IMG/VR virus record: IMGVR_UViG_3300029893_000008
Span: 1-58,313 of that record
Origin: a virus
Taxonomy: Duplodnaviria; Caudoviricetes
Length of the DNA: 58,313 nt
Strand: one strand, 5' to 3'
Of the stretch, positions 12,270 through 43,984 are shown in pieces. Numbering within the stretch: the first letter of the stretch is position 1; every line of letters starts with the position of its first letter. The notes under the pieces were generated by a model. It ran no database searches and had not been told where the DNA came from. It was given only the letters and a program-made list of their open reading frames with translations. The position numbers and the translations under genes were made by a program.

Positions 12270-12301
12270 GATACATTCTTCCTTAATATATGGAGGTTAA
12301 T

Positions 12302-13096
12302 ATGGGATTTTATTCAAGAAGTTTTACTTATGGTGGACAACCTTCCGAATTATATGGATTAGAAATTGCTTCTACAAATACTGGTATGATTTCAGGAAAT
12401 GGCAGTGGGAATGTGAGCATATTAGAGAGTTATATTTACAGAAAGCCAAAACCTTATTTTTATGGTGTAACTTTTGATTCAAAATTAAGTTTTGATGTTT
12501 CTTTTTTTTCTAAAAATGAAATATCAGCAGAGGATGCAAGTGGTATTCAAAACTGGTTATTTGGAAGTAATGTATATCGAAAGTTAGTTATAACACAGGG
12601 AGATATGTCCAGCATTTATTTTAATTGTATTTTTACTAACCCCACAATACTAAAAGCGGGTAATTTATTGTACGGTTTTAGTGCCACTGCTATTTGCGAT
12701 AGTCAATTTGCTTGGACTTATCCTCAAACTATTTTATATACTTTTTCTGGTTCTTATGTAGATTCTACTACTGATTTTTATAATGATTCTCATTATCAGG
12801 GATACTTATATCCTCAAATAACAATCAATATGAATGGTGTTACAAATGGTTTAGCGAGAATTATAAATGTTTCAGACAATAATCGTATCTTTCAGTTTAC
12901 AGATTTAAATCCTTATGAAAACATTATTGTTGATAATGAGTTAGGAATTATTACTTCAAACAGTGGTTTTAAAAGATTAAAAAATTTCAATAAAAACTTT
13001 TTAAGACTTATTCCGATGGGAAATCGTTTGATTTTTCAGGGAAACATTACTTCTATATCCATGAGTTATCAGTTTGCTAGAAGATTAGGTGGTTAA
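12302..13096 (+). CDS. Distal tail protein (Dit)
   Basis: Follows TMP; FTYGG.PS..YGL, NWLF, CDSQFAW and FLRL..G.N motifs; GGAGG RBS before ATG 12302. Confidence 0.7.
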   Translation: MGFYSRSFTYGGQPSELYGLEIASTNTGMISGNGSGNVSILESYIYRKPKPYFYGVTFDSKLSFDVSFFSKNEISAEDASGIQNWLFGSNVYRKLVITQGDMSSIYFNCIFTNPTILKAGNLLYGFSATAICDSQFAWTYPQTILYTFSGSYVDSTTDFYNDSHYQGYLYPQITINMNGVTNGLARIINVSDNNRIFQFTDLNPYENIIVDNELGIITSNSGFKRLKNFNKNFLRLIPMGNRLIFQGNITSISMSYQFARRLGG

Positions 13097-22095: not shown

Positions 22096-24849
22096 TTAAA
22101 GTCCACAAACACCTTCTACACATTCTTCATTGCCTTCAAATACTACACCCTGTCTAGAAAGGGCAAATTTGAAATCTACTTGGGTTAAGGGTTGTCCACC
22201 CCTAGCCCCGTCTGGATATGTAGTAATTCCTCTTAAATTGGGAAGATATTTATATAATATTTCCCCAAATTTACGAAAATCATCGTTTCCAAAAAGTCCA
22301 TAAGCAGGTAAGTTAATTGTTGAAGAAATTGCATTATCTACATATCTCTGCACAAATGCTTGAAATCTTATTCTTCTTTCAACATCAATTGATAAATCAT
22401 AAGAATCTTCTATTTTATCAATGTTATAACCCTCTCTATAAAGTCTTTCTGCCACGAAATCTGCTACATATTGTTTTTTCCATCCATCAGGAGTAAGGTA
22501 TCTTCTCTGGTAAGCAAGAGAAAAAATCGGTTCTATTCCACCCGTAGTTTGTCCACCAACAATACTAATTGTACCGTTTGGGGCAATTGCACGCTTTTTT
22601 ATAGGTGTAGCAAAGTTAAGAATATCTGCCCATTTTTTAGCACTTTCATCAGAAACATCTTTCCAAACCTGAAGATATTGTGCAAGTTCATCGTTTTCTT
22701 CATATCTGTAACCGTGTTTGATAAGCCATTCGTGTAATCCCATTAAGCCAAGTCCTGTCCTTCTATTTTTTTCTTTGACTTCTTTAACTTTTTCATAAGG
22801 GACATCACTGTATTCTGTACCAACAATCAGAAATAATTGTGCAAGTTCTGTTACCAGTTTCATTTCTTCCAAACTTTCAATTCTTCCCATGTTGATACTA
22901 CCCAGACAGCATACATCAGAATCATCCTCTGATACAATTTCTGTACAGGCATTCCTTAATGATTCGTTCTTATTTTCATAATCAACACTAAATGCTGGTT
23001 CACCAGTTTTAGTCATCCTCTCTATAACTTTCCAGTATACATTTTGGGCTTTCTGATGAAGGGGATGATTTTCGTTTTCATACGCATTAAAAAATTCTTT
23101 ATCTAAAATGACGGATATATTAGTCATATCCATTGTAGCAGGGAAATCAAAATCTTTTTCTTTTAGTTTTCTTACTTCTGGAATCCAGTTTTTCATTGTA
23201 ATAAAGTTTTCTATATCACCATGATTCCATGCTAAACCAGCCCATATTGCCGAATTATGGACAACAAAACCGTTTGTAATAAATTCTTCCCCCTCTACTT
23301 CTAAATCCCATGTTTCTGCATTTCTTCCTTCTTCAATAGATAAAACGGAAACAGGTAAAATTTCTAATTCTCTTTTTTGTATCTTTTCTATATATTCTGT
23401 ACTATATTCAAAATTTTTATTTTTAAAATAAATTTTTGGTATGTTTGATTTTTCTATAAGACTAAATGGAAAAGTATAGAAAGATTTCATTTTTAAACGA
23501 GGGCGTCTATATTTTAAAGAATTTTTAAATATGAGTTTTTCTGCTTTTAATAATTGCTTTTGATTATTTATTTTGATTTCATATACATCTTCTAAACCCC
23601 TGTTTGTTTTTCTACTTTTTAATACAGTAGATATACCCAATGAAGAAAGAATATTTTGGACTTGAAGAATAAAGTTTATTTCATTAGCCCTTGCTAAAAG
23701 GATAGGTATGAAAAAATGACCAACAGCATCAAAAATCCCCGCAACAAAATTTGAACGAATGGAAATGCTTCCTCTTAATATAAATTCTGGAATAATTATA
23801 TTTTCCCCTTGCTTAAATTGACTTAAAAATTCTACTAAAATTGAGGAGTAAATTTCTATATCTGAATAATCTTCATAATTATTTATTGTATAATTTGCTT
23901 TAAATTTATCAATTATATTAATTATACTTTCTTTTATATCGGGAAAATTATTTGAATATGATATTACAATTTTTTCTTTATTATTTTTGTTTGCATTGAA
24001 ATATTTTCCATTTTCAAAAAAATATCCCAAAAGCCATGCCATATCATTATCTATCTTTATATTTCTACCCTTAATGATAATTTTAATTTCGTTTTCTTTA
24101 AATTCTGAAATATTTTGAAAGAAAACCAATTTATCTTTTTCTTTTAATTCATCTGCTCTTTTGAAAATATATTTGTCAATAGCATTAAAAACTGCTACCC
24201 TATGGTTTGGAGTACATTCTAAAAAACCCATTTCAGTATTTATATTGATAGTTTTTTGAATGCCTTGATTCAATTTTCCAGTAACTCTTTTATAACCCGC
24301 TACTGTTTTTACTTTTGTACCAATTTCAACTTCTTCAATGGGTATTAGTCCTAATTCAGTATCTACAAGTGTACCCTTTGGTAAGCAACGCCTTTTTCCA
24401 CCAGCCATCACCCCCCTACCAACTTCATTTACCGCTTTCATAAGAGGTAATGCTCCCGCCGAATGTCCCCCACTCCTTTTTAAAGGACTTCCTTCTGGTC
24501 TTAATTGACTATAATCAATACCTATGCCACCACCACTCATTAAGGCAAGAGTCGTTTTTCTCAATAAATCCCCCCATCCTTCTCTGGTATCCTCTGCACG
24601 CAAAAGGAAACAATTATTTACCTGATGATATTCTCTACCAGCCTGTGCTAAAAATCTTCCACCAGCAATAAACTTTCTTTCCCTCATAATTCTTTTTAAT
24701 TCATCTGTTGTTTCTTTTTTGTTTGAGAAATCAACCACAGAGAAAACATTATCCACTACTCTCGCAACAATATCATTCCATGTTTCCAGCGTACCATCCG
24801 CCTTTTTCCACGAGTATCTCAATTCCATAATACTATCACTAAAACTCAT
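22096..24849 (-). CDS. nrdJ: Class II (adenosylcobalamin-dependent) ribonucleotide reductase containing an intein
   Basis: NNCF, GGGIG, NACTE, CCLGSIN, GLGLMG, APNGTIS, GIEP, SSTIN and C-terminal CVEGVC; compact after intein removal; no nrdB in window; probable start ATG 24849. Confidence 0.85.
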   Translation of the reverse strand: MSFSDSIMELRYSWKKADGTLETWNDIVARVVDNVFSVVDFSNKKETTDELKRIMRERKFIAGGRFLAQAGREYHQVNNCFLLRAEDTREGWGDLLRKTTLALMSGGGIGIDYSQLRPEGSPLKRSGGHSAGALPLMKAVNEVGRGVMAGGKRRCLPKGTLVDTELGLIPIEEVEIGTKVKTVAGYKRVTGKLNQGIQKTININTEMGFLECTPNHRVAVFNAIDKYIFKRADELKEKDKLVFFQNISEFKENEIKIIIKGRNIKIDNDMAWLLGYFFENGKYFNANKNNKEKIVISYSNNFPDIKESIINIIDKFKANYTINNYEDYSDIEIYSSILVEFLSQFKQGENIIIPEFILRGSISIRSNFVAGIFDAVGHFFIPILLARANEINFILQVQNILSSLGISTVLKSRKTNRGLEDVYEIKINNQKQLLKAEKLIFKNSLKYRRPRLKMKSFYTFPFSLIEKSNIPKIYFKNKNFEYSTEYIEKIQKRELEILPVSVLSIEEGRNAETWDLEVEGEEFITNGFVVHNSAIWAGLAWNHGDIENFITMKNWIPEVRKLKEKDFDFPATMDMTNISVILDKEFFNAYENENHPLHQKAQNVYWKVIERMTKTGEPAFSVDYENKNESLRNACTEIVSEDDSDVCCLGSINMGRIESLEEMKLVTELAQLFLIVGTEYSDVPYEKVKEVKEKNRRTGLGLMGLHEWLIKHGYRYEENDELAQYLQVWKDVSDESAKKWADILNFATPIKKRAIAPNGTISIVGGQTTGGIEPIFSLAYQRRYLTPDGWKKQYVADFVAERLYREGYNIDKIEDSYDLSIDVERRIRFQAFVQRYVDNAISSTINLPAYGLFGNDDFRKFGEILYKYLPNLRGITTYPDGARGGQPLTQVDFKFALSRQGVVFEGNEECVEGVCGL
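23254..24387 (-). mobile_element. Intein (378 aa) with LAGLIDADG-type homing endonuclease region
   Basis: GGKRR|CLPKGTLV...CTPNH (block B)...LLGYFFENG / VAGIFDAVG...TWDLEV...VVHN|SAIW. Confidence 0.92.
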
Positions 24850-24925
24850 ATTATTTCTCCTCTCCAAAATGATATATAAAACTCAATTCAACATTCTGAA
24901 TTGAGAATATTTTTTTATTAATTTT

Positions 24926-25201: not shown

Positions 25202-25777
25202 TTAATTTTTTGTTAATAAGAATTTACTAATATAATTAAAATATAAATCGTACAAAAATTCTTTCAATATCAAATTATTATTTTTATGATTATAATAATA
25301 AATATCAAAATTATAATTATCTAGTTCTGTTTCAGAAGAATGAGATTTTAATTCAGAATCCAGTAAAGTACTTTGACCATCTATTCTTAAAGTAATAATT
25401 GGAATATTTTTATCTTTCCAGAAATTAATTTCATTATAAAATCTGCAATCTGTTACAATTGCCATATCAAAAAAATTATCGAGGGCTTTTATAGTTCTAT
25501 AAACATGCTTTACCCAATAATTTTTATATTTTTTTCTAATAACATCTGTACCAATGTGTTGAAGTAATTTTCTCCCTTCTAAATTCTTTTGACCATCCCA
25601 ATTAAAATATTTTAAAAGATAGAATTTTAATAAGTCTGCATAAGCAATTTTTAGTATTTTTATTTCTGGATTAACATTTTTGGAATATTCAATAATTTTA
25701 TCAGATATAAAATCTTTTCCAACCCCTGCTTTTCCAGATATAAGTAATACAAGTTTTATGGTCATATTATTCTCCAA
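25202..25777 (-). CDS. Deoxynucleoside monophosphate kinase
   Basis: P-loop SGKAGVGKD, YADLLK, RKLLQHIGT, TDCRF.NE and HSSETELD motifs. Confidence 0.8.
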   Translation of the reverse strand: MENNMTIKLVLLISGKAGVGKDFISDKIIEYSKNVNPEIKILKIAYADLLKFYLLKYFNWDGQKNLEGRKLLQHIGTDVIRKKYKNYWVKHVYRTIKALDNFFDMAIVTDCRFYNEINFWKDKNIPIITLRIDGQSTLLDSELKSHSSETELDNYNFDIYYYNHKNNNLILKEFLYDLYFNYISKFLLTKN

Positions 25778-25972: not shown

Positions 25973-26137
25973 TCAGTTCGGAGAAATAATAATAGTTAAA
26001 ATACACGGATTATCTATCCTGACAGTTCTTTCCATTATGCCCTTATGAGTATAATTAACAAATATATCTTGCCTTTCAATTCTTATAAGGTAATTTTCAA
26101 TATATTTATTTTCAAAAAAGGATTTTCTTCTTTTCAT
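25973..26137 (-). CDS. 54-aa hypothetical protein (not in ORF track)
   Basis: ATG overlaps the polymerase stop (ATGA); MKRRKSFF...IIISPN*. Confidence 0.5.
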   Translation of the reverse strand: MKRRKSFFENKYIENYLIRIERQDIFVNYTHKGIMERTVRIDNPCILTIIISPN

Positions 26138-28803
26138 TCATTATCTCCTATATATCTATCAAATGAATTTTCTATTCTTTCATAATTAGAAAGCCACCAC
26201 TCATCTTGCTCTGTTTCAATATATTGATTATTTTTATATACATAAGCCTTTCTTTTTTCAAAGTTTTTTGCAAAAATTATATCGCCATTAACCAATGGTT
26301 GTGATTCAAATAATTTTTTATTAACTTTTACAGTAATTCTTTTTCCATTATTTAGAGAATATAAATCAATTCGTGGAGTATATCTTAAATCAACATTTTC
26401 GACAATAGTTATTCTTTTATCTAATTCTTCAAATAATGTATAAACCATTCCTAAATTTTCTTTTTGAAAAATTATATTTTGAAAAATAGGTATTCTGGTG
26501 TCTTTTGTATATTTTTCAAAATTAATTAATTCTTTATATCTTTTTATTCTAGTTTCTTCTTTGTGATTTTTAGAATATTTAAATTTTCCTTCTGTAAATT
26601 CTTTGAAAATTTTATGAAGTTTTCCATTTTTTCCAAATGTTTTAAAAAAGTCAAGATAAATCAAAATTTCTAATTGCTTATTTGTGATTTTTAATTCTGA
26701 TAAATCTATTAATAAATCTAAAAAACTATTGTATTTTTTGGTATATAATTTATATAATTCCTTTGCTACCTGTGGTGTAATAAATTTTATTCCAGCCAAT
26801 CCCATATATATTACACTTTCATTTTTATCATAAGAATAGAAATATTTAGATTTACCAAACTCTATATTTTTAATTTTTAAATTTTTTAAATTTTCAGGTA
26901 TTGTCGAATATTCATTATCTTCATCTTCATTCTTTTCCTCTAATAATTTCTCTTTCTGTATAGCAATTTCATCTTCTATTTCTTTTATTTCCCTAATATA
27001 CTTTTCGGCTTCTTCCACATAAAAGTCATAATTTACATCATATTCCTCAAATGGAATATTTTTGTCGTAATCGTTCAAAATTCTTACATAATTTGAAACA
27101 TAAACACCTATTTGATTTCCGTTTTCTCTATTTATTTTAACTAATTTCCCACCAGCATTAGAGATATAACACCTGTTTGTTTTTTGAAGAGGTATGTCAT
27201 TGCCTTCTTCTGTTCTATACACAAAATCAAATTTATCACCAGCCTTTTGAGAAAAACAAAAATTAAGTATATCTCTTTCCTTTTTAATAGTATCTATTAC
27301 AGGAATGTCTTTCATGTAATAGAAAAATAGTGCATCAGAAACCACTGGAAAACTGTATGCTTTATTGATTTCAATATCTGTCATAAATCTACCTTTTTCT
27401 TTTACTTCACCATCTACCTTTAATGTAATATAATTGTTGACATCTGTTCTAACATATAACTTATATTCCGTAAATTCTAGGGATAATTTAGTCTTGCTTT
27501 CCCATTCTTTACATATTCGATAATAATCATCTATCTTATCCTTATTAACATAAGAAACAATGCCATCGGTATTTGCTGAAATAACTGGTATTTCGTTCAG
27601 ATGTAATTCTTCAATTAGCATTAGTAAAAATAATTGACCATTTACAGTAACCTTAATTAATCCTTTTGGGTCGTAAAGATAAAATAATTCACTTCCCATT
27701 TTTCCAAATATAGAATTAATGGAAATTTTTAAAGCATCTGCTTTTAGTTTATCTTTTTCTTTTTTTGCTTTCACTCTTTCTTCTGTCATCTTCCTTAAAA
27801 TATCTAAAAATGTTTCTGAAAGATGAGAAGGATAGACCTTTTCATTCAATATAATATTAGGATAATAACTTGTAACATCTGCATCAATGATTTTATAGTT
27901 TTCAGATGAAACAAACTTTGCTGGATTATCTTCTGAATGTAATCCACCTATGCCCAATTCATAAGTAATTCCAGCAAAAGTTATTTTTTCTTTATATTTG
28001 TATTTATTTTCTTTTACTAATATTGTTTCTCTTAATTTTAATAAAAGATTATTTAATTTTTCTGTTTTGAATTTTACTTTATCGCTAATACATTCTGAAA
28101 GCCAAAAAAAATTTACATCCTTGTTTGTTTTTTTATGGATGTTAAAATCTGGCTCTTGTTTTTTATAGTAATCTTCCAATATAACATTTCCAATTTTGCT
28201 ATCACTTGCATTCAATAAATCCACGTTAAATAATTCTGATAGTTTTATCCTTAATTCAATTTGTGGATATAATTTTTTATACAATTCCCTTGTAATTAAA
28301 ACATCATTAATATTATATTGAATAATTGTTTCTATTTCTTCCTTTTTAATAGGCTTATCATAGGGTAATGGAAGGTCTTGAATCTTGTGCCATTTTAGAG
28401 AAACAGATACAGCCTTAAGTGAAATTCCTAATTTATCAAATGCTGGAATTTTCATTAAATCAATATCTTTCCATACAAGTTTTCTGTTAGGACTAAAAAG
28501 AACATTTCTGTTACCTGATATAATATTTTGAGAAAAATTATAAATATGTAAATTAATATCTTTGCTTTTGTTATATGTTATAACTTCATATAAAATTTCT
28601 CTATCATAAAAAAGATTATTATACCCAATAAGATAATTTACTTTATTTTCTATAAAATCTATCAATTCATCTCTTTGGTCTATACCATATTGCCAAGATA
28701 TAGAGAATGTATAAATCTCATTTTCATCTTCAATGTTAATAAAAGTAAAGCATAAGAAATTTTTAAATACTTCTACATCATAGCAATAATCTTTTTTATC
28801 CAT
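26134..28803 (-). CDS. Family B DNA polymerase with 3'-5' exonuclease, fused to a DnaE(PolC)-like HhH/OB C-terminal region
   Basis: Exo YDVE / GYN..YD / YNINDV; PolB DADVTSYYP, KISINSIFGK, NTDG; after an acidic linker, GLAGIK / SFLDLL / QLEILI.LDFF..FG / ENLG match the DnaE C-terminal pattern. Confidence 0.85.
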   Translation of the reverse strand: MDKKDYCYDVEVFKNFLCFTFINIEDENEIYTFSISWQYGIDQRDELIDFIENKVNYLIGYNNLFYDREILYEVITYNKSKDINLHIYNFSQNIISGNRNVLFSPNRKLVWKDIDLMKIPAFDKLGISLKAVSVSLKWHKIQDLPLPYDKPIKKEEIETIIQYNINDVLITRELYKKLYPQIELRIKLSELFNVDLLNASDSKIGNVILEDYYKKQEPDFNIHKKTNKDVNFFWLSECISDKVKFKTEKLNNLLLKLRETILVKENKYKYKEKITFAGITYELGIGGLHSEDNPAKFVSSENYKIIDADVTSYYPNIILNEKVYPSHLSETFLDILRKMTEERVKAKKEKDKLKADALKISINSIFGKMGSELFYLYDPKGLIKVTVNGQLFLLMLIEELHLNEIPVISANTDGIVSYVNKDKIDDYYRICKEWESKTKLSLEFTEYKLYVRTDVNNYITLKVDGEVKEKGRFMTDIEINKAYSFPVVSDALFFYYMKDIPVIDTIKKERDILNFCFSQKAGDKFDFVYRTEEGNDIPLQKTNRCYISNAGGKLVKINRENGNQIGVYVSNYVRILNDYDKNIPFEEYDVNYDFYVEEAEKYIREIKEIEDEIAIQKEKLLEEKNEDEDNEYSTIPENLKNLKIKNIEFGKSKYFYSYDKNESVIYMGLAGIKFITPQVAKELYKLYTKKYNSFLDLLIDLSELKITNKQLEILIYLDFFKTFGKNGKLHKIFKEFTEGKFKYSKNHKEETRIKRYKELINFEKYTKDTRIPIFQNIIFQKENLGMVYTLFEELDKRITIVENVDLRYTPRIDLYSLNNGKRITVKVNKKLFESQPLVNGDIIFAKNFEKRKAYVYKNNQYIETEQDEWWLSNYERIENSFDRYIGDNE

Positions 28804-29602
28804 TTTCTACCTTATCTTTTATAGGTTTCTTGTATTGACAACTATTTCTTACTGAACATAAATAATTACAATAAAATTCGTTCTCATTATTATATTCAAT
28901 ATTTTCAAGAGAATAAATTTTCTTAATAATCTTTTCGTATTCTTCTAAAACATTAAGTGTGTATTTTTCATCATATTCAAAGGTTATTTTCTGATTACTC
29001 CTGATAAACCAAAGCATACCCTTTTGAATTTCTATATTTAGAAATTTCTTAATAAAATATATATAAATAGATAATTGTTCTTTGTATGATTTTAATTTAT
29101 CTTCATCTAGTTTTTTATTTTTATAAATTTCAGAAGTTTTAAAATCAATAATAATTGTTTCACCAGTTTCTTTATTTCTAAAAACTAGGTCTGGTTTAAT
29201 GGTAATTTTATAATCCTTTATAGTACCTTTTATAAATTCTTCCGAATTAATAATTTCATAATGGTCTTTGTCAAAATCAAAATTATCAAAAAATTTTAAT
29301 CCAGAATTGTAATAAGAATTTAAGATATTATATAAGGGTGGTGGGTCATAATTTATATTATTAAAAAAATTATTTTTATAATAAGATGACATTTCCCATA
29401 CATCTAATTCCCCTTTAAAATAGGCTTCAACTATTGAATGAATAAAATTTCCATAATCAGAAAAAAAATTTCCATCTCTCTTTACTCTCTTGTCATACAT
29501 TAAATAAAAAGAGTATGGGCAATGTTTATATGTATTAATACTGCTAAATGAAAATAAAAATTCTGATAAATCTAATTTTATTTTTAAATTTGTTTTACTC
29601 AT
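28796..29602 (-). CDS. PD-(D/E)XK (RecB/Cas4/AddB-like) nuclease with Fe-S cysteines
   Basis: SFSSINTY..CP, GNFIH, PDL...IIDFKT, QLSIY, C..LC.....C. Confidence 0.85.
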   Translation of the reverse strand: MSKTNLKIKLDLSEFLFSFSSINTYKHCPYSFYLMYDKRVKRDGNFFSDYGNFIHSIVEAYFKGELDVWEMSSYYKNNFFNNINYDPPPLYNILNSYYNSGLKFFDNFDFDKDHYEIINSEEFIKGTIKDYKITIKPDLVFRNKETGETIIIDFKTSEIYKNKKLDEDKLKSYKEQLSIYIYFIKKFLNIEIQKGMLWFIRSNQKITFEYDEKYTLNVLEEYEKIIKKIYSLENIEYNNENEFYCNYLCSVRNSCQYKKPIKDKVENG

Positions 29603-29693: not shown

Positions 29694-31013
29694 CTAATCT
29701 TCATCATCTAGTGGATTTTCATCATCAATAAATTTTACACTTTCACCAATAAATTTTACATTAACATATCCCAATGCACCACTTCTATTTTTAACACAAT
29801 AAATTCTGCTACTTTTGATAACAGCATCTTCTTTTTTATGCCGAATAATTAAAATCAAATCGGTTGCTTTTTCTCCTGCTTGTGATAAATCAGAGGGTTT
29901 TGGTTCTCTTTCATTGTGTTCTATAGACCTGTTCAATTGATGTGCTACAACTATTGGTATTCCAAATTCCCTTGCCAAACCCTTTAATTGGTAGGTTAAT
30001 TTGTCTACTCTGATGTATTCATTTTCATTTTCTTTCGATGAGATTAATTGCTCTAACTGGTCAATGAAAATTATTTTAGCACCCATTTCAACCATTTTTC
30101 TTATCTTTCCCCTCAAAGTGGGAATAGTAAGAGAAGGGCTATCATCAAAGAAAATACCAAGTCCTCTAATTGTTTCAATTGCTTTTTTGTATTGTTCTTT
30201 TTCTCTATCAAAAATTTTACCCAATCTAATACGCAAAGTAGGAATACCAGAGAAAAAACTAATTATCCTTTGAGTATATTCCTTTTTTCCCATTTCAAGA
30301 GAAAATATTCCTACTTTTTTACTCCATAACGGATTTGTAGCAATATTCATCGCAAAGGTTAACAACAATGCACTCTTACCTTCCCCTTGCCTTCCAGCAA
30401 CAATAACTAATTGCTCATTAAAAAACCCACCAATTAACTTGTCTAATTCTGTTAATCCTGTTTCTAAATATTCTCGATTTCCTTTTTTTGCCTTTTCAAT
30501 TTCCTGAATCGTTTCTTCAAGTATATCTGTTACAGGTGTGATACTATTATTTCTGGTTTCCGATAATATACTAATATCGTTTAATTCTTTATCAATATAT
30601 TCAATAATTTCTTTTGTAGTAGAATTATTAATTCTTTCTTTTATTCTATTTGATAAATAATAGATTTTTCTTTTTGTAGAATTATCTTTTATTATCTTTA
30701 TATAAGTTTCATAATTTTCTAATTCTGCTTCCTTATTAATAATATATTCTATACCGTGTTCTGTTTCGGATATTTCAGTATTGTAGATATTTAATATTTC
30801 CCCACTCCTTTCTAATTCATCTAAAACGGTAATTTTATCAATTCCTTTACCTTCCGTATATAAAGAAAAGTATACTGAAAATAATGTACTATAAGGTTTC
30901 CAATAAAAATCTTCTTCTGAAACTTGGTCAGATATATAATTCATTAAATCAGGATACTTTATAATTAATGATAATAGACTCTCTTCAATCTCTGGCGAAA
31001 AATTCAATGTCAT
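29694..31013 (-). CDS. dnaB: Replicative helicase DnaB
   Basis: TG...LD...GG, Walker A AGRQGEGKS, FSLEM, IFID, QLNR and KNRSG. Confidence 0.92.
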   Translation of the reverse strand: MTLNFSPEIEESLLSLIIKYPDLMNYISDQVSEEDFYWKPYSTLFSVYFSLYTEGKGIDKITVLDELERSGEILNIYNTEISETEHGIEYIINKEAELENYETYIKIIKDNSTKRKIYYLSNRIKERINNSTTKEIIEYIDKELNDISILSETRNNSITPVTDILEETIQEIEKAKKGNREYLETGLTELDKLIGGFFNEQLVIVAGRQGEGKSALLLTFAMNIATNPLWSKKVGIFSLEMGKKEYTQRIISFFSGIPTLRIRLGKIFDREKEQYKKAIETIRGLGIFFDDSPSLTIPTLRGKIRKMVEMGAKIIFIDQLEQLISSKENENEYIRVDKLTYQLKGLAREFGIPIVVAHQLNRSIEHNEREPKPSDLSQAGEKATDLILIIRHKKEDAVIKSSRIYCVKNRSGALGYVNVKFIGESVKFIDDENPLDDED

Positions 31014-31858
31014 TTATGCTCGCTCCTTTCATTTGCTAAAAAGAAAATTGTACCTAAACTGATTTCTTCTGGATTAAATGTTTTCCATTTTTCTTCACAA
31101 ACACCAGATTGATATTTTATAGAATTTTTACTCCATTCATCCCATAATTTTAAACCTTTATCCCCCAAAGAATAGAGTGCCATACCTATTGTAATCCAAT
31201 CCTGATAATTATCAGATAAATGCTTAATTCTGTCAAGTGAATTTATAATTTTTGGTAAATTTTCTTTTATATTTAAAAATCTTTGGTTCTCTTTTTTCTT
31301 TTGATAATTTTTTAAAGAATTTAATTTTATTAATTCTTCCTCTGTTATTTCTCTTGGAATTTTATCCCACTTTGTCAATGCAAGATAATATTTTTTAGAA
31401 TTTCCATCGTAAATATATGAGGGTGGAGCAATAATATATCCACCTGTACCTCGTGTATCTATTCCCAATCTTGTATTTGTTGTTGTTCTTGTACTTCTTG
31501 TAGAAGAAAAGACAATATGCCATCCCCCACTCGGTGTTCTACTTTCTAAAGCACCCTCTTTATCTATGCCAAGTTTCATAAAATTTCTAATACCATCTCG
31601 ATTATTTTTTATATCAATATCTATTACAAATAAATTTGATTTACCACAAGCAATTCCTATACATGCTTCTGGAAATCTCTTCCAAAAATTAATTATTTCC
31701 CTCTCATTAATTGTACTATTTTTAAATCCACCTTCAATATATGGGGATTTTACTTTAAAAACTTTATCCCCATATATTATTTCTTTTTCCCTACATGGAA
31801 AAACATAAAAACCCATGCTTGCATATTCTAGTGCTTTTTCGAGTAAATTATTTTTCAT
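31010..31858 (-). CDS. Bifunctional primase-polymerase domain plus PriCT-2
   Basis: ALEYA..G..VFP, VIDID, TPSGGWH, DTRG.GGYIIAPPS; C-terminal W..IGMAL...W..WS..KY...W.TF. Confidence 0.88.
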   Translation of the reverse strand: MKNNLLEKALEYASMGFYVFPCREKEIIYGDKVFKVKSPYIEGGFKNSTINEREIINFWKRFPEACIGIACGKSNLFVIDIDIKNNRDGIRNFMKLGIDKEGALESRTPSGGWHIVFSSTRSTRTTTNTRLGIDTRGTGGYIIAPPSYIYDGNSKKYYLALTKWDKIPREITEEELIKLNSLKNYQKKKENQRFLNIKENLPKIINSLDRIKHLSDNYQDWITIGMALYSLGDKGLKLWDEWSKNSIKYQSGVCEEKWKTFNPEEISLGTIFFLANERSEHK

Positions 31859-31929: not shown

Positions 31930-32310
31930 CTAGAAAGGAATTTCATTATCTAATTCAAAGTTATCATCACTAGCCTTTTCAACTCTTTTAGTTTTTACTT
32001 TTTCATCTGAAAGTTCAAAGTTGAAAACTGTCAAAGTCGGAAATTTAGGATATAGTGTTTCACCATCTTGTTGATAAGGTTCTTTTTTCATTGTAGCACC
32101 AGAAATTTTAATTCTGGTTTTTTCTGGAATGCCCAATTCTTTAAGTTTTTCATAGGCACTTCCAACAAAATTAGCATACCACGAGGAATTTACATATTTT
32201 TCAGTTTTTTTATCTTTTCTACTACTGCTAATCTTTACGACAGCATAGTTACCCTTGTCTTCTTGTATTCCCCAAAATGTTACAAATTGTTCAGCAATAT
32301 TAAGACTCAT
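31930..32310 (-). CDS. ssb: Single-stranded DNA-binding protein
   Basis: OB-fold-like, acidic C-terminus ending DNEIPF; located in the replication cluster. Confidence 0.75.
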   Translation of the reverse strand: MSLNIAEQFVTFWGIQEDKGNYAVVKISSSRKDKKTEKYVNSSWYANFVGSAYEKLKELGIPEKTRIKISGATMKKEPYQQDGETLYPKFPTLTVFNFELSDEKVKTKRVEKASDDNFELDNEIPF

Positions 32311-32314
32311 TTTT

Positions 32315-32554
32315 TTATCCTTTTCTAAACTTTTCTAAAAACTTCACTAATTCTTTACTTTTTTGTGATATTTTGGAAATTCTTTCATCATACCATTGCT
32401 CTTTTGTATATTTTTCGGGTATAAAATTCAAACTTGCCAAAAATAGAATTTCATTAATTTTAGGATATATTTCTTCCACAACACACTTCCCGCAGATAAC
32501 TTCCCCGTGATGAATATACTGTGAACACCTTTTGCATTCTGGTAAAGATGACAT
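32315..32554 (-). CDS. Small Cys-containing hypothetical protein
   Basis: CKRC...CGKC. Confidence 0.5.
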   Translation of the reverse strand: MSSLPECKRCSQYIHHGEVICGKCVVEEIYPKINEILFLASLNFIPEKYTKEQWYDERISKISQKSKELVKFLEKFRKG

Positions 32555-33573
32555 TATTCCTCTACTTCTTCATCTTGACTATCTAAATCATTAACCATTT
32601 CAATAATCTTCAACAGTGTTTCTTTGTCTTTAATAGAATTTGTATTACCGTTTGGCACAAAACTCTTAACAATTTTCATCACTTCTGGATTTTTACTTCC
32701 ACCATGCTCTTTACAAACCTGAATAACAATTTCTTTCAATTGTTCAATTTCCTCTTCTTCTTTATTCTCTTCTTCAAAGATGTTTTCTTCCTTTTGAGAA
32801 ATAGATTTTCTTACCTCTTTTGATGTATCAATAGAATTTACTACCTTATCAAAAATGGTGAATGTAGGATTTTCTATTTTCTTGTTCTTTTCCAAGCCAT
32901 CTGCACGGGATTTTTGAACAATAATCCAGCGTTTATTGACTTTATCATCATAAACCATTCTCAAAATAAAATCAACGGCATATTTCGTATTCTTTTCAGC
33001 ATCAAAGGTATATTCACCAGTTTTAACAATACTTCCATCGGGTTTTGTTTCAGAAATTTCTTTTTCCCTTGCAACCAAAATAACATTTTGAGGAAGATTT
33101 TTTAGAGAAAGCATCAAATCTTTATAAACCCGCTTCATATCAGCCCAATCTTTTTGATTAAAACTCTCTAAATCTAAATCATTGATTGGATTTTTCTTAT
33201 ATTCACTAGATTTTTTAGATTTAATAATGTCCTTATATTCTGCTCTTTGGGATTGAATATTATCCCAAATATCTGAAATGGGGTCAATTACAAATGTTTC
33301 ATACTTTTTTCGACCTTCCTGACTTTCCAGATATTCAATTGCTTTCATTAATTCTTTAATAGATGAAGTTTTCAATCCCTCATCATCTACCCAATAGTCA
33401 AAATCAAAACCCTTACGACCCTCAAAAAAGTCTGTACCACTTTCGGCATCAAATACCAAAATTTTAGAGGGGGTAGATGTCAGAGCAAAATGAGTCTTCC
33501 CCACCCCTGCATCTCCAAAAAGTAAAATTTTTAATTTTTTATTATTTCTTTCTTGTGATGATTTTACTCCCAT
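32554..33573 (-). CDS. Sak4-like AAA ATPase (single-strand annealing/recombination)
   Basis: Walker A GDAGVGKT, DAESG, VIDPIS, AREK; adjacent to ssb. Confidence 0.75.
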   Translation of the reverse strand: MGVKSSQERNNKKLKILLFGDAGVGKTHFALTSTPSKILVFDAESGTDFFEGRKGFDFDYWVDDEGLKTSSIKELMKAIEYLESQEGRKKYETFVIDPISDIWDNIQSQRAEYKDIIKSKKSSEYKKNPINDLDLESFNQKDWADMKRVYKDLMLSLKNLPQNVILVAREKEISETKPDGSIVKTGEYTFDAEKNTKYAVDFILRMVYDDKVNKRWIIVQKSRADGLEKNKKIENPTFTIFDKVVNSIDTSKEVRKSISQKEENIFEEENKEEEEIEQLKEIVIQVCKEHGGSKNPEVMKIVKSFVPNGNTNSIKDKETLLKIIEMVNDLDSQDEEVEE

Positions 33574-34279: not shown

Positions 34280-34308
34280 ATTATAGTATATAATGTCTTA
34301 TTTGTCAA
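34280..34308 (-). promoter_or_regulatory. Sigma70/sigmaA promoter for the thyX-sak4-ssb operon
   Basis: TTGACA-17 nt-TATAAT. Confidence 0.75.
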
Positions 34309-34924
34309 GGGGTAATTTCAAATGACTTTTATATCTATCTATCATCCATGATTCATACTCTACATCCCTTTTTTCTATATCCGAATAAGAGGGTCTTTGA
34401 ACGGCTATCATTTCTGGAATGGAAATAAAAGCGTTAATTGTAGGAATAATGCTTGTATAAATTAAATCAAGCGGAGTAGCATAATATCTCGGTATTTCCA
34501 ATAACAGCCTCGATATAAAGTTTTTGTTAACCATATACGCATGGGTGGACTGTGCATGAGATAGTTTTCCAAGATGTTTAGTTACAGGTGTTATTGTATT
34601 ACAAATATTTCCCCCAAGATAAAACATATCCCATTCAACTTCCTCTAAATCTTTTAATGCTAATTCAAAATTTTCTCTTGCATTAGGTAAAAATTTAACA
34701 TCATCTTCAAAAATTAATACATGCTTATTTTCTTTCTCATTACTGGAAATTCCCAAAATGTTCAAATGAGAGAAAGCACAGCCTATAACACCATTTTCGG
34801 TTTTGATAGCGGGATAAATCATTAAATTTTTGATAATCCCAAAATTTTGCAATTCATCTATTGATTTACTTAACCTATCTCCCCGTTCTGGTAAATTTAC
34901 TAAAAAAGCATTATATTCAATCAT
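34298..34924 (-). CDS. Glycosyltransferase family 25-like
   Basis: VNLPERGDR, GCAFSH, IFEDD, DMFYLG, THAY, Q.PSYSDI. Confidence 0.85.
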   Translation of the reverse strand: MIEYNAFLVNLPERGDRLSKSIDELQNFGIIKNLMIYPAIKTENGVIGCAFSHLNILGISSNEKENKHVLIFEDDVKFLPNARENFELALKDLEEVEWDMFYLGGNICNTITPVTKHLGKLSHAQSTHAYMVNKNFISRLLLEIPRYYATPLDLIYTSIIPTINAFISIPEMIAVQRPSYSDIEKRDVEYESWMIDRYKSHLKLPLDK

Positions 34925-35817
34925 TTCAATATCCCTTCTATAAATTTTTCTTGGTTATAATATAAATATTCAGGATGAGATTCTGGTGTAATTTCTACTA
35001 ATTGAAATTTTGAGGGTCTGCCAAAAATATCAAAACCTTCATAAATTCCCTTTGTCAAACTATGTTGTAAATTATAAATAATACTTTCTTTATTTAACGA
35101 TTGCTCTCCCCATGACTTTATTTTTTTAATAATATTATCTAATCCGCCCATATATGTAAAATGCCAGCCAGCATTATACAGATTTCTTCTCTTATAATCT
35201 CCATTTTTATATGTTCGATAATAAGTATATGAATGCTTTTCAAAATTTTTATATTTTGTAACGATATTTCCAAACCATCTTTCACTTAATTTTTTTAAGT
35301 TATAATAATACCAATAATTATCATGCTCTAAATGGTATACAACATCATCATCTATTTCTTTTTTCAAATTTTCTATAACTGTTTTTCTAGGAATTTCATC
35401 ACAATCTCCAACAATAATTATATCATTATCTTTAAAAAAGAAATTATTACAAATTAAATATTCTTTTTCAAATGTATCTCTAAAATAAGAATTTACATTT
35501 TTATCAAACCAGTCAGATTTATCTATATTATTTTTTATTTTAAAAAGAATAGAATTATAATTTTCTTCACAATAATTTGAAAAATCGTTATAAGATAAAA
35601 AATTGTAATCGGATGGAATTTCTACATGAATAATTTTTGAGAAATATTTTGAAAATCTCTTGTAATTTTCTTTAAAATATAGTGGTTTTGGAAGTCCAGA
35701 ATGTGTTATAGAAGATTCTTGAATTATAAAAGCATCAACTGTATTCCATAATTCATTCAGTTTTATTTCCAGAATATCCAATTCATTGAAAAATAAAAAA
35801 TTGCAAAATGTTCTCAT
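34921..35817 (-). CDS. Glycosyltransferase family 17-like (MGAT3-type GlcNAc transferase fold)
   Basis: FFNELDILEI.L.EL...VD.F...ES..THSG.PKPL, GDCDEIP, AGWHFTYMGG. Confidence 0.8.
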   Translation of the reverse strand: MRTFCNFLFFNELDILEIKLNELWNTVDAFIIQESSITHSGLPKPLYFKENYKRFSKYFSKIIHVEIPSDYNFLSYNDFSNYCEENYNSILFKIKNNIDKSDWFDKNVNSYFRDTFEKEYLICNNFFFKDNDIIIVGDCDEIPRKTVIENLKKEIDDDVVYHLEHDNYWYYYNLKKLSERWFGNIVTKYKNFEKHSYTYYRTYKNGDYKRRNLYNAGWHFTYMGGLDNIIKKIKSWGEQSLNKESIIYNLQHSLTKGIYEGFDIFGRPSKFQLVEITPESHPEYLYYNQEKFIEGILK

Positions 35818-36710
35818 AAAATTTTTTCTTCCCCATTTTCAGAATATGAAAAAAGTTTTCCTTCTCTATTCATAAAATTAAAACCCCATTTTGAAAATGT
35901 CCAAATATCACTAGAAGCCCAATAACCGTTACTTACATTGTATCTAGCCCAGTATTTAGGTGCAATAATAAAGGGATTATTCGGATTGGTAACGGATGGG
36001 ATAATTGCAAAAGATGAATTTGATAAAATAAGATTTTTAGCATGATTGATAATATAATAATCGAGTCCTATTGTAAAGTGATAAACATTCATTTTTGGTA
36101 AAATTTGACGGGCATAGTCTACATCATCTGTTACCACAGCAAAATAAACTTTTGGATTTTTATCAATCATAATTTCAATTGATTTTTTCCAGTAATCAAC
36201 ATCTAAAATCAAATTAGGAATATATACATATTCACCCCCCCTCACATTGATTACGCAAAGATTTTCATCTTCTAAATTAATCTTATGATATTCTAAAACT
36301 TTATTATAATTTTCTACATTTTCTTTTTTTATCTGATTCCACTCTTTAAGATGATTTATGTCAAAATATCTTGCATCTTGACCGCAGGAAAATACATAAA
36401 TAGTGTTATCTTTCGGACTTTCAAATACATCATTTTGAAAAGGATGATAATCATAATAATCACCATTGACATAATTTGAAATTTTCTTTTCTCTCCACAT
36501 ATAAAAGTTTTTTGTTTCCCCGTAATTTATATCAACAGGATACCCGTAATCTAAATTTAAGAAATCAGATTGTAATTTTCCGCCATAATAATCAAAAAAA
36601 TATCTCTTTGTAAAACCAAATTCTAAATTTGCCCTATGTGCTATTTCTCTAATTAAATTATATTGTATAAGTCCATTTCCTAAATTTCCTGTAAAATAAG
36701 TGGTTATCAT
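35814..36710 (-). CDS. Glycosyltransferase family 11-like (alpha-1,2-fucosyl/colitosyl transferase)
   Basis: GNLGN..Q, INVRGGEY, VTDD, ILSNSSF and IAPKYW motifs. Confidence 0.8.
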   Translation of the reverse strand: MITTYFTGNLGNGLIQYNLIREIAHRANLEFGFTKRYFFDYYGGKLQSDFLNLDYGYPVDINYGETKNFYMWREKKISNYVNGDYYDYHPFQNDVFESPKDNTIYVFSCGQDARYFDINHLKEWNQIKKENVENYNKVLEYHKINLEDENLCVINVRGGEYVYIPNLILDVDYWKKSIEIMIDKNPKVYFAVVTDDVDYARQILPKMNVYHFTIGLDYYIINHAKNLILSNSSFAIIPSVTNPNNPFIIAPKYWARYNVSNGYWASSDIWTFSKWGFNFMNREGKLFSYSENGEEKIL

Positions 36711-36715
36711 AAGTA

Positions 36716-37390
36716 TTATCCTTTTCTATCTGTACAAATTTTTATATTCAAATTACTAGGATACAAATTTCTATGAAATCCAAAAGTTTTTATACCTATA
36801 TTTTCTGGTACAGGTGTTTCAAAAGAAAAGTTTTTTGCTATTTCTACTGGTGCATAATTTATTCCTTCCTTTAAAAATGTGCTTCTATGATAACAACAAA
36901 TGTTTCCATCTTCATTATAATAACCCATTTCTTCTTTTAATTCAAGTCCCAATTTTTTAGGTAATTGCATCAATTTTCTACTTCTTAAACTAAATCCGCC
37001 ATTCCCTACCCTAACTACTTCCCCGTTATCTGCAATATATGAACCTTCTCTAATTTCCCATAATGCACCAATATAATCGTAATTTAACCATTCATCTGTC
37101 CATAATTGAGGATTAATCACAAAACCATGATATTGTACCAATAGTGCATGGCTTGTATCAATATAATCCCCCAAATCAAAAAAACAAAATCTATTAAAAT
37201 CCATAATATCATTAATTGGATTTATTTTTACAATCTCAATTGGCTTGGGGGGAAGTACTTCTTTATCTGTTAAAAATAAAACTTTTTTAAATCTTAATTT
37301 ATCTGTTGATACAATTAAAGCATTAATAGTTTTTTCTATTTCAATAGAAGATATAGCCACAAGTGTAACATCATTTAATATTTTATCCAT
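36716..37390 (-). CDS. DUF5672-like putative glycosyltransferase
   Basis: DTSHALLVQ..GF.IN, YDYIGA.W, VGNGGFSLRS, NED, FSFE, FGFH. Confidence 0.8.
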   Translation of the reverse strand: MDKILNDVTLVAISSIEIEKTINALIVSTDKLRFKKVLFLTDKEVLPPKPIEIVKINPINDIMDFNRFCFFDLGDYIDTSHALLVQYHGFVINPQLWTDEWLNYDYIGALWEIREGSYIADNGEVVRVGNGGFSLRSRKLMQLPKKLGLELKEEMGYYNEDGNICCYHRSTFLKEGINYAPVEIAKNFSFETPVPENIGIKTFGFHRNLYPSNLNIKICTDRKG

Positions 37391-38108
37391 TACGATACTT
37401 CCTATATATATAATTTAAATCATTACCAATAATTTCTGCTGTCATTTGACTTGTACTGCTTTCTTCCCCATTAATATAATTTTTCATTGTTATTTCATTA
37501 GATAAATAAGGTTGACCATATCTTTCCACGAGTCTATGATACCATTCACAATCATAGTAGTATTTCAGATTATTATCAAATAGAGGAATTTTATACATAT
37601 TCCTAATTGTAACGCAAGATGGTGTACCAATTGTATTTACAATAACTATATCTTGATTATAAGATGGGTAGTGAAAATCTCTAAACTGTTCAACTTTATT
37701 ATCTAATATATGTGCGTAAGCAAAAGCATACCAAAAATAATTTTTATTATCTAATATAATTTTTTCAATTATATTTAAAGAATTATTATCAAATAATGTA
37801 TCATCTTGACAAAGTAATTTAATATATTCACCTTTTGCATTAAGTAATAAATTGTTAAAATTATTTCCAGCACCCTTATCATTTTCATTCTTTATATATC
37901 GAATATTAATTCTATCTTTCCAACTTTTATAAACCTTATAAATTATATCATCATCTGAATCATCACTAACTAGAATTTCGTAATATTTATCAGAATAATA
38001 CTGCTCATAAATGCTTCTAATTGCTCTTTCAAGATAAAAATGACCTTTTCCACGCATAGAATAAGCAGGGATACCTATTGTAAAAAATAAATTATATTTA
38101 CCAGTCAA
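37383..38108 (-). CDS. Glycosyltransferase family 2
   Basis: IGIPAY, EILVSDDS, N.N.....A.GEYIK.L.QDD, IG.PS, DCEW. Confidence 0.85.
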   Translation of the reverse strand: MTGKYNLFFTIGIPAYSMRGKGHFYLERAIRSIYEQYYSDKYYEILVSDDSDDDIIYKVYKSWKDRINIRYIKNENDKGAGNNFNNLLLNAKGEYIKLLCQDDTLFDNNSLNIIEKIILDNKNYFWYAFAYAHILDNKVEQFRDFHYPSYNQDIVIVNTIGTPSCVTIRNMYKIPLFDNNLKYYYDCEWYHRLVERYGQPYLSNEITMKNYINGEESSTSQMTAEIIGNDLNYIYRKYRNG

Positions 38109-38805
38109 TACTTAATTCCTTTCTTAACTTATCTAAATTCATTGTAATATTTGATGGCATACTTTCATGGATTAAAAAAAACTCTTCATAAGATTCTGGA
38201 TTTGTTCTTTTAGCCAATTCATACATGCTTTTTGTTCTTGTACCCACATTATAAACACCTTTTGCATTTTTTTTGACCAACCATATAATTAAAGTCGCTA
38301 TCTTATCAACATAATCAAAATTACCAACCATTTGAAAAACCTTTTTATAAGGAAAAGGCTTTTTCTTAAAAGAAGTCCTTATAATAAGATTTTTTTCAAA
38401 TAATTGACAATAGGCATCTGATAATAATTTTGTATAACTGTACCAGTTATTAGCATGGACGGGTACATCTGTTTCTTTTGCATTTATTTTAGAATTTGCG
38501 TACAAGTAATCCGTGCTAATTTGAACAAGTTTAATATTTTTAGAATTACACCAATTTGCCAGATGAATTACAAATACATAATTTGTATCCCAATGCAAAA
38601 TTTTTCCCTCTTCTGTCATATTATAGGTGCTTGTATATGCAATTGCATTTAAAATTACATCAGGATTTTCTTTTTCTAAAAATGGAATAAGTGTTTTAAA
38701 ATCTCTTGCTTCTATTCCATCTTTTTTTCTAGAAATATAATTCCATTTAGTTTGTCTTATAATTTCATTTCCCAATAAACCATCACCCAATACTAATATA
38801 TTCAT
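38098..38805 (-). CDS. RmlD-like NDP-4-keto-sugar reductase (SDR)
   Basis: GDGLLG nucleotide-binding motif, ISTDY, YSYTK (YxxxK), IIRTS. Confidence 0.8.
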   Translation of the reverse strand: MNILVLGDGLLGNEIIRQTKWNYISRKKDGIEARDFKTLIPFLEKENPDVILNAIAYTSTYNMTEEGKILHWDTNYVFVIHLANWCNSKNIKLVQISTDYLYANSKINAKETDVPVHANNWYSYTKLLSDAYCQLFEKNLIIRTSFKKKPFPYKKVFQMVGNFDYVDKIATLIIWLVKKNAKGVYNVGTRTKSMYELAKRTNPESYEEFFLIHESMPSNITMNLDKLRKELSIDW

Positions 38806-43983: not shown

Positions 43984-43984
43984 G

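Follow-up and report, generated by a model that had tools for sequence, protein, structure and literature searches.

A phage family-B DNA polymerase with a DnaE-type (HhH)2-OB tail, and gene-context support for an in-place swap of its catalytic part

The catalytic folds of DNA polymerase families B and C are unrelated, and in Caudoviricetes whole polymerase genes have been swapped in situ, with PolA and PolB replacing one another and PolA taking the place of PolC, according to passages of Yutin et al. 2024 (PMC11348598). In DnaE, as laid out in parts of PMC3919608, the Pol3 region is followed by a pair of helix-hairpin-helix units, (HhH)2, a beta-clamp motif, an OB fold and, in DnaE1, a C-terminal domain; some DnaE3 proteins end after the OB fold. 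Two groups of phage polymerases lie closest to the gene described here, which is found in the IMG/VR virus record IMGVR_UViG_3300029893_000008. The first consists of phage DnaE proteins (GP96 of Geobacillus virus E3, those of Tsamsa-like Bacillus phages and of phiCD211-like Clostridioides phages), which carry the same (HhH)2 and OB region and end right after the OB fold, but whose N-terminal ~770 residues are PHP and Pol3 where our protein has a family-B exonuclease-polymerase. The second consists of PolBs of the PHROG 1252 type (Enterobacteria phage 9g, Rhodobacter phage RcTitan, crAss-like phage cr107_1), whose core is homologous to that of our protein at ~31% identity over residues 1-610 and which have no tail, none of 1019 matching phage records covering at least 80% of the query.

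The record is linear, 58,313 bp long, with a GC content of 23-34% and a CheckV completeness of 43%, and its whole length is called the window below. The polymerase gene lies at 26134..28803 on the minus strand (stop codon 26134-26136), and its open reading frame (ORF) and translation give a protein of 889 aa consisting of a PolB core and a DnaE-type (HhH)2-OB tail. A full-length AlphaFold2 model has a mean pLDDT of 87.4 and a pTM of 0.78, falling below 50 only at residues 625-631 and 887-889. We consider it reasonably probable that this is a replicative two-module PolB::DnaE-tail polymerase of a phage, that it arose by an in-place swap, and that its tail acts as a processivity grip and tether.

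The same architecture recurs in many related proteins. Among the 121 closest proteins (the window's own and 120 listed), with architecture assigned by domain profiles, 57 consist of core, HhH and OB, 41 of core and OB only (~750 aa), 18 of the core only and four of the core with another extension, and one copy, P0002, ends early. Conservation is given below for 38 of the 57 full fusions (alignment A1). The HhH-bearing fusion is present in 12 of 80 related viral loci, and fusions also occur on contigs binned to metagenome-assembled genomes (MAGs) of Patescibacteria, Holosporales and TM6. One family member, P0053 (1057 aa), has no HhH: it joins the same PolB core to a PF01336 OB, after which come a long stretch rich in Pro and Ala and one more domain. 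This architecture suggests a second, independent kind of OB acquisition.

The core spans residues 1-612 (26968..28803; all coordinates of this gene refer to the minus strand) and combines a 3'-5' exonuclease with a polymerase, matching phrog_1252 over residues 2-612 (E 2.3e-154). An earlier reading of the letters alone (the sequence-only reading) had described complete PolB exonuclease and palm motifs, and all four that it named are present: Exo I as YDVE (residues 8-11; 28771..28782; D9 and E11 invariant in 38/38), motif A as DADVTSYYP (residues 307-315; 27859..27885; D309, S312, Y314 and P315 invariant in 38/38), motif B as KISINSIFGK (residues 359-368; 27700..27729; K359, N363, G367 and K368 invariant in 38/38, aligning to motif B of E. 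coli Pol II) and motif C as NTDG (residues 411-414; 27562..27573; S409, N411, T412, D413 and G414 invariant in 38/38). The usual PolB motif C is DTDS; here Asn replaces the first Asp, within a lineage variant SANTDG. The exonuclease and polymerase carboxylates D9, E11, D309 and D413 are all kept in the 38 fusion relatives, and the PolB core is probably complete and active, with a proofreading exonuclease.

A profile built from A1 gave 23 matches at E<=0.001 among PDB sequences, all of them family B, the best being 8s84_A (E 2.9e-9) across motifs B to C. Foldseek with the full model returned PolB structures in 47 of the 47 listed rows (archaeal PolB, E. coli Pol II, Pol alpha; E from 2.1e-14), and about 1000 phage PolB genes match the core at ~31% identity. 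Other sequence searches reach less far: at E up to 10 Pfam has no PolB family for the protein, the NCBIfam Pol II models cover residues 331-425 only, far under their cut-offs, and a phmmer search of PDB sequences with the core alone found E. coli Pol II as its best match at E 0.38 only. Residues 1-612 are a family-B polymerase. The polymerase protein contains none of PF02811, PF07733 and PF17657, which cover the PHP and Pol3 catalytic parts, and because PHP and Pol3 domains are lacking it is a family-B polymerase with a family-C accessory module, not a member of family C.

The core is followed by an acidic flexible linker (residues 613-640; 26884..26967) with a net charge of -5 in the window, negative in 38/38 relatives, and with pLDDT <50 at residues 625-631; tail-less relatives such as P0052 stop exactly at the linker position. 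Beyond it lie the (HhH)2 module with a conserved basic loop and helices (residues 641-790; 26434..26883), matched by Pfam HHH_6 and structurally by Pol III alpha, and the OB fold (residues 791-880; 26164..26433), a five-strand barrel in the AlphaFold2 model that matches the OB folds of Pol III alpha, SSB, RPA and PriB and is the segment previously described as beta-rich and OB-like. The protein ends 9 residues past the OB fold, with no C-terminal tau-binding domain as in DnaE1. About a dozen fusions of the window's subclade (including P0003, P0006, P0009, P0014, P0018 and P0040) end after the OB fold in a motif like EE[IF][DN]KL[IL], which could be a short linear partner-binding motif; the window's C-terminus (…FDRYIGDNE) differs.

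Several independent comparisons tie this region to DnaE. Pfam HHH_6 (PF14579, DnaE-type HhH) matches residues 644-726 with 32 bits against a gathering score of 25.6, and domain databases already put PF14579 on these proteins. The tail matches positions 713-920 of 974 in the NCBIfam DnaE model NF005516 and positions 826-1068 of PHROG 405, a family of 1190-aa polymerases. A tblastn search with the tail hit 78 phage records at DnaE C-termini, 32 of them covering at least 80% of the tail, and the best match was the C-terminus of Geobacillus virus E3 GP96, annotated 'DNA polymerase III alpha' (41.7% over 235 residues, E 3e-46). Folded alone from a 42-row alignment, the tail reached a pLDDT of 91.6 and a pTM of 0.80, and the top eight Foldseek matches to this model were all Pol III alpha/DnaE chains (E 4.6e-7 to 6.7e-4). 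A structural search of 48,161 chains independent of Foldseek placed Taq Pol III alpha first (2hpi_A 863-1125, Z 14.2, 195 aligned residues, rmsd 4.6), followed by M. tuberculosis DnaE1 (Z 13.3) and E. coli alpha (Z 12.7), with 195-235 residues aligned, and tail residues 186-279 formed the OB barrel, with matches to SSB, RPA and PriB at Z 6.5-7.5. Pfam PF01336 (OB) does not match the window protein, though the OB fold is present in the model, and no PDB sequence was hit at E up to 10 by phmmer with the tail as query.

Residues 641-880 are the DnaE C-terminal (HhH)2 and OB region. The chimera of a PolB core and a DnaE HhH/OB tail put forward in the sequence-only reading is confirmed by the Pfam, tblastn and fold searches, and its landmarks are all in place: EEKNEDEDNE (residues 623-632, ~26908-26937), IYMGLAGIK (665-673), YNSFLDLL (691-698), NKQLEILIYLDFFKTFG (708-724) and QKENLG (780-785). 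A tail without DnaE homology is contradicted by the HHH_6 match above threshold, the E3 GP96 match at E 3e-46 and the structural match at Z 14.2.

The distribution of the tail points to the donor. An exhaustive search of 1.84 billion representatives with the tail returned 710 proteins at E<=0.001, with the match C-terminal in all 150 of those listed. Among 148 newly fetched tail carriers, 91 have a DnaE catalytic part (23 of these are at least 1000 aa long, several with inteins), four have a PolB core and 53 have neither (median 273 aa); Pfam applied to ten of the last group found DnaE finger/alpha domains in six, HHH_6 only in three and nothing in one. Since most carriers with a catalytic match are DnaE, the (HhH)2-OB module is, on its distribution, native to DnaE, and outside DnaE it is seen on this PolB clade only. 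Many of the carriers are short, starting within the finger domain, which suggests split dnaE genes, and the tail-bearing phage DnaE genes of L085 (7994-12349), P0193 and P0246 are interrupted by inteins with LAGLIDADG endonucleases.

The window tail is 41.7% identical to the E3 DnaE tail (171 bits), and 25-42% identical to other fusion tails. In a quick tail tree of 170 rows (filtered for 200 or more aligned tail residues and an envelope of no more than 330 aa, which removed the E3 DnaE row among others), 48 of 49 PolB tails and 7 DnaE rows fell into one weakly supported group. A careful tree of 63 of those rows contained a 98/98 clade of 13 PolB and 5 DnaE rows, and paired the tail of the DnaE P0125 with that of the fusion P0017 (support 94/92). 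The maximum-likelihood tail tree implied five label changes, and a single PolB-tail clade appeared in 0/200 bootstrap trees. Repeated exchange of tails had been considered, and the claim was dropped because a single clade uniting all 29 PolB-linked tails among the 63 rows, a group named after viewing the quick tree, was not rejected by an approximately unbiased (AU) test (p 0.134).

Genes around DnaE in two related viral loci bear on how the fusion arose. Locus L168 encodes a DnaE up to its residue 348; this DnaE shares 75% identity with P0125 over residues 2-336 and is preceded in order by a Sak4-like gene, a small ORF, a helicase, a PD-(D/E)XK nuclease and a 236-aa ORF. The end of its Sak4-like protein is 50% identical to the window's, its small ORF 39% to the window's 126-aa ORF, its 653-aa helicase 50-53% to the helicases of L002, L007 and L019, and its nuclease 40% to the window's and 55% to that of L004. 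Overall, the L168 flanks are 39-55% identical to those of PolB::tail genes (window, L004, L002, L007, L019), values as high as the 40-49% found for the same genes between the window and L004, its closest collinear fusion relative. The 236-aa ORF (4237-4947 of L168), which lies between nuclease and DnaE, has no counterpart there in PolB::tail loci, and no more than its first ~60 residues resemble an ORF of L024.

The second locus, L085, is a 139-kb viral contig on which DnaB, a DnaG primase and a PD-(D/E)XK nuclease precede a 1451-aa DnaE with PHP, intein, Pol3 and finger regions that ends in a homologous tail. Its nuclease is 30-32% identical to those upstream of PolB::tail in the window, L004 and L019, and its primase 27-29% to primases upstream of PolB::tail in L005, L009, L010 and L024. 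Nuclease homologs lie directly upstream of PolB::tail in L002, L004, L007 and L019, of PolB with OB in L011, L013, L014 and L017, and of DnaE in L085 and L168. Scored as a nuclease no more than 500 bp upstream of the polymerase, the arrangement is found at 4/12 HhH fusions, 4/5 of the ~750-aa forms, 0/1 locus scored as core and OB by phmmer (L015), 1/4 DnaE-type loci and 0/62 other, tail-less PolB loci. DnaE and PolB forms share homologous sequence in their last ~250 residues and differ in the catalytic part only.

Because the DnaE loci L168 and L085 sit in replication modules collinear with that of the window, gene context supports an in-place swap of the catalytic part. This is the event proposed in the sequence-only reading, in which PolB replaced the catalytic part of a phage dnaE and the tail was kept in frame, and the related phages with dnaE at the same locus that it called for are represented by L168, with an incomplete DnaE, and L085. 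As the tail is native to DnaE, we infer that the swap ran from DnaE to PolB; how many such events there were is likewise an inference. The ancestral module would have consisted of an annealing protein, a small ORF, a helicase, a PD-(D/E)XK nuclease and DnaE; a PolB core from a lineage of tail-less phage PolBs (PHROG 1252) would then have replaced the PHP-Pol3 part of dnaE, with the last ~250 codons, encoding (HhH)2-OB, staying in frame, and subsequent losses may have produced the OB-only and tail-less forms.

Several points weigh against this history. The L168 contig breaks off short of its DnaE tail, and P0125 has to supply the link to the tail; flanks only 39-55% identical mean that L168 and the fusion phages are not sister genomes; and eight of the 12 HhH-fusion loci have no adjacent nuclease. 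The window tail sits on a long branch (1.0-1.3 changes/site) with an unsettled placement. Synteny in cultured phages adds nothing, none of 1387 records matching the window helicase at more than ~30% identity and only two matching the nuclease, and single-protein searches for related loci in viral contigs found none, likewise with P0125 as the query.

The core tree leaves room for a different order of events, in which a resident polB took up the 3' end of dnaE by recombination with another phage and the backbone was PolB-type throughout. This tree comprised 70 of the 121 family proteins and eight of the 62 distant loci (78 rows), rooted on the distant tail-less PolBs. All extended forms fall in its ingroup (99*), with the window in a 97* clade of 10 full fusions. 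The tree needs at least 10 architecture changes among its 78 rows, which makes the tail labile and is a further point against the swap; some 'core-only' rows may reflect truncated gene calls. Tail-less PolBs form the outgroup and are also interspersed in the ingroup, and P0053, with its different OB (PF01336), shows that the core accepts C-terminal additions. Capture of the tail by a PolB-type phage is nevertheless unlikely, as the helicase-nuclease flanks are common to fusion and DnaE loci (39-55% for L168, 30-32% for L085) and not to the 62 other PolB loci. We retain replacement of the catalytic part within a dnaE locus as the better account.

What the tail does for a family-B core can be approached through its charge. 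Across the 38 relatives, core and linker are net-positive in none, the HhH region (641-731) is positive in 31 and the OB fold in 35, and in 14 tail columns K/R make up 80% or more of these rows. Between HhH and OB lies a conserved basic element, 'EF..GK.KY.K...K[TS]K.KR[LI]', with G739 kept in 92% and Y743 in 97% of the rows. Nucleic-acid binding is plausible given this contrast in charge between tail and core. The C-terminus of a PolB lies where the duplex exits the enzyme, a topology that fits a grip by the tail. The HhH pair would then grip the product duplex leaving the polymerase and the OB fold would hold the single-stranded template, and the conserved basic loop may add contacts to DNA or to partners. 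In this form the tail would be a built-in processivity grip and replisome tether, and the PolB core could work without a dedicated clamp. We judge the chances about even that the tail is such a built-in DNA grip, tied to the core by a flexible linker and holding the product duplex with HhH and the template with OB; we infer both the DNA binding and the effect on processivity from the roles of these domains in DnaE.

This proposal has to be set against the net charge of 0 of the window's own OB fold, against the incompleteness of the window (43%), outside which a clamp or a second polymerase could lie, and against the three-domain beta-clamp of 364 aa encoded by G001, the record that holds L004, the window's closest collinear relative. 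The last of these leads to a different function, in which the retained 'beta-binding' region of DnaE would be an adaptor that docks the PolB core on a host or phage beta sliding clamp through a non-canonical site, DNA contacts being secondary. In keeping with this, the tail model aligns to residues 808-927 of clamp-bound E. coli alpha (5m1s_A, Z 8.6), and the strongly conserved loop around G739 and Y743 stands at the place where the motif is expected. No canonical clamp-binding motif is conserved: Q..[LMIF].F-like matches occur in 6/38 tails, sporadically and at non-homologous positions. The window string 'QNIIF' (residues 775-779) was considered as such a motif and rejected, since it lacks conservation and falls within the pre-OB helix. 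Pfam found no beta-clamp homolog in four of five fusion-bearing records, a search with the L082 clamp protein found none in four fusion-bearing records and one DnaE-type record, including ones 93% and 100% complete, and both fusion-bearing phage records at least 93% complete lack one. A clamp homolog was likewise absent from the window and from the 1.7-Mb bin of contig L087, though a host clamp could serve. The predicted complex of one protomer of the clamp from the L004 record with the L004 tail (residues 30-282, A3) scored 0.00, which speaks neither for nor against binding. A clamp adaptor is on this evidence improbable. The sequence-only reading had called the tail DNA-, clamp- or replisome-binding; the basic charge pattern makes the first of these roles plausible, and the lack of a conserved canonical clamp motif speaks against the second.

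Any core would equally be wired into the same replisome if the tail were kept for binding the phage helicase, the PD-(D/E)XK nuclease or an SSB. DnaE and PolB::tail alike have the helicase and nuclease as conserved neighbors, and a nuclease next to the polymerase goes with tail- or OB-bearing enzymes of both families and is missing at 62/62 other PolB loci, but this co-occurrence is explicable by shared ancestry alone, and eight of 12 HhH-fusion loci lack the adjacent nuclease. The C-terminus of the helicase is acidic in the window, and 8/12 helicase-like ORFs of related loci have 5-8 acidic residues in their last 20; next to the conserved basic element of the tail this is suggestive, but acidic helicase ends are common and unspecific. 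Docking on these partners as the tail's main role seems distinctly unlikely. A broader version, which we advance tentatively as possible if doubtful, is that (HhH)2-OB is a family-agnostic coupling module defining how a polymerase plugs into the replisome, with DnaE and PolB cores as interchangeable cassettes on it. Such a module, combining a duplex and template grip with a basic partner loop, would if real be a living case of the route ('replace the engine, keep the coupling') by which eukaryotic replicative PolBs are proposed to have arisen from PolD.

The integrity of the junction was followed into sequencing data and relatives. Twelve sequencing runs hold at least half of the sampled words of the junction stretch; eight of these runs are flagged possible sources. 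Runs X9 and X8 have contigs across the junction (~26884-26967) with 0 differences, which contradicts an assembly chimera, and run X11, from a wastewater study and unflagged as a source, has an identical contig over 26895-27063. No indels were reported in the four runs compared. Inside the OB region, the 93-kb contig L087 carries a +1 insertion at codon ~799 that creates a stop, followed 55 nt later by a +2 insertion that restores the frame; P0002 is annotated at 804 aa because of the first, and neither insertion was seen in the four runs. L087 (gene at 10001-12670) belongs to a MAG labelled Candidatus Woesearchaeota and is 98.8-99.9% identical to the window over the 22.7 kb compared; its 1.7-Mb bin has PCNA on another contig and no beta-clamp was found there, and as Woesearchaeota is a bin label no host is drawn from it.

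Selection on the tail could be read from one pair of loci. Among ten pairs examined for dN/dS, L008-L009 and L006-L024 are identical, L005-L008 duplicates L005-L009 (L008 being the same as L009), and the remaining six have dS >1 or undefined in at least one region. The sole unsaturated pair, L005 and L009, gave 0.057 for the core, 0.062 for HhH and 0.091 for OB, which places the tail under the purifying selection that the sequence-only reading had suggested checking along with recurrence in independent genomes, the latter borne out by the 57/121 proteins and 12/80 loci above. Compared pairwise, the 38 aligned fusions are on average 53% identical in the core, 38% in HhH and 32% in OB. By these measures the tail evolves faster than the core yet is clearly constrained. 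The window's own OB fold is a point to the contrary, being 28-35% identical to the nearest available relatives with a saturated dN/dS of 0.6-0.9. An assembly chimera or a disused, decaying tail, for which only the frame disruption in the 96-99% identical contig L087 speaks, is extremely improbable given a full tail in 57/121 family proteins from independent assemblies, contigs of other runs crossing the junction, no indel in four runs, a tail dN/dS of 0.06-0.09 and a tail pLDDT of 91.6.

In the window, the polymerase gene lies inside a minus-strand block of replication and nucleotide metabolism genes, in the order Sak4-like protein, 126-aa ORF, primase, DnaB-like helicase, nuclease, polymerase, dNMP kinase, ribonucleotide reductase-like ORF and dUTPase; plus-strand ORFs of structural size lie upstream. 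The PD-(D/E)XK or Cas4-like nuclease (28796..29602; Pfam PDDEXK_1, E 1.4e-18, and Cas_Cas4) is immediately upstream and overlaps the polymerase start by 8 bp. It is preceded by the DnaB-like replicative helicase (29694..31013; phrog_19, E 5e-86) and by a DNA primase (31010..31858; phrog_1156, E 5e-25) that matches PHROG 'DNA primase' and 'polymerase/primase' families and is 49% identical to its L004 counterpart. The collinear part of the module begins (31930..33573) with the Sak4-like annealing protein (32554-33573; phrog_124, E 1.8e-29) and the small conserved ORF of 126 aa (31930-32310); L004 and the DnaE-type locus L168 have homologs of both, likewise in this order. Beyond the polymerase lie the dNMP kinase (25202-25777) and the 923-aa ribonucleotide reductase-like ORF (22096-24867), all of these on the minus strand. 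Read by eye, the translation of the latter seems to be interrupted by an intein-like insert whose middle resembles a homing endonuclease. Besides the polymerase, 30 of the 70 window ORFs listed at 90 aa or longer were scanned against PHROG. PF07733 (DnaE catalytic), PF00476 (PolA) and PF00712 (beta-clamp) match nothing in the window, and PolB::tail is the only recognizable DNA polymerase of this uncultured phage.

Other minus-strand genes of the window describe the phage more broadly. A tyrosine-type integrase (55576-56394; phrog_1, E 4e-57) makes it probable that the phage is temperate. At least five DNA methyltransferase-like ORFs lie within 8 kb (43576-44721, 47223-48572, 49045-49836, 50332-51126); the adjacent ones at 43576-43983 and 44161-44721 match the same region of PHROG 799 and may be a split gene. 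A cluster of glycosyltransferase-, nucleotide-sugar epimerase- and aminotransferase-like genes (34298-40078) adjoins the replication module, occurs at another position in L004, and may serve the sugar modification of DNA or of a surface. An RNA ligase (45862-46749; phrog_548) and a 490-aa 'RNA-binding protein' (51449-52921; phrog_850, E 1.5e-110) could be an RNA repair pair.

Together, the fusion shows one accessory module serving the unrelated catalytic folds of families B and C, with relatives bearing either core sharing a gene neighborhood. It makes testable the contribution of the DnaE C-terminal region apart from its own catalytic core, as well as partial, domain-level replacement of a polymerase, so far proposed only for the ancient event behind the eukaryotic PolB C-terminal domain. 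Bacterial Pol III alpha (Taq 2hpi, M. tuberculosis 7pu7, E. coli 5fku and 5m1s) has the same fold order as the tail at 11-16% identity, and differs in that the tail has no canonical clamp motif and no tau-binding domain. The fusion may also be a natural counterpart of processivity-raising fusions, and if that is so this large family could supply compact, clamp-independent proofreading polymerases. Pavlov et al. (2002) reportedly described engineered HhH polymerase chimeras. Fusions of DNA-binding domains such as HhH and Sso7d raise the processivity and salt tolerance of polymerases, as stated in parts of PMC10253169, and relative to the man-made chimeras treated there PolB::tail is natural, the likeness resting on architecture.

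Full-text literature searches, with supplementary tables outside their scope, returned no paper describing a PolB::DnaE-tail fusion, and the portions consulted of PMC11348598, PMC7544198, PMC4889955 and PMC12926913 contain no description of it, although cluster tables of the first two may list such proteins. The available main text of PMC11348598 has no occurrence of 'fusion' or 'fused'. The whole-gene exchanges treated in passages of Yutin et al. 2024 (PMC11348598), the nearest phenomenon so far described, resemble the present case in that polymerases of different families occupy the same place with their neighbors unchanged; there whole genes are swapped, whereas here only the catalytic part would have been and the old piece stays fused to the new one. 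The comparisons made above support reading the fusion as a partial, domain-level swap, as opposed to the known whole-gene swaps. The closest parallel in concept is the proposal of Kazlauskas et al. 2020, as given in sections of PMC7544198, that the C-terminal domain of eukaryotic PolBs came from the DP2 subunit of PolD with its catalytic part replaced, so that in both cases a PolB takes the place of a non-homologous catalytic part and a C-terminal interaction domain is kept. In that account (PMC7544198, same sections) the donor is PolD, the retained piece a Zn-binding helical C-terminal domain and the event ancient and inferred, whereas here the donor would be DnaE, the retained piece is HhH and OB, and the replacement would be visible among living relatives.

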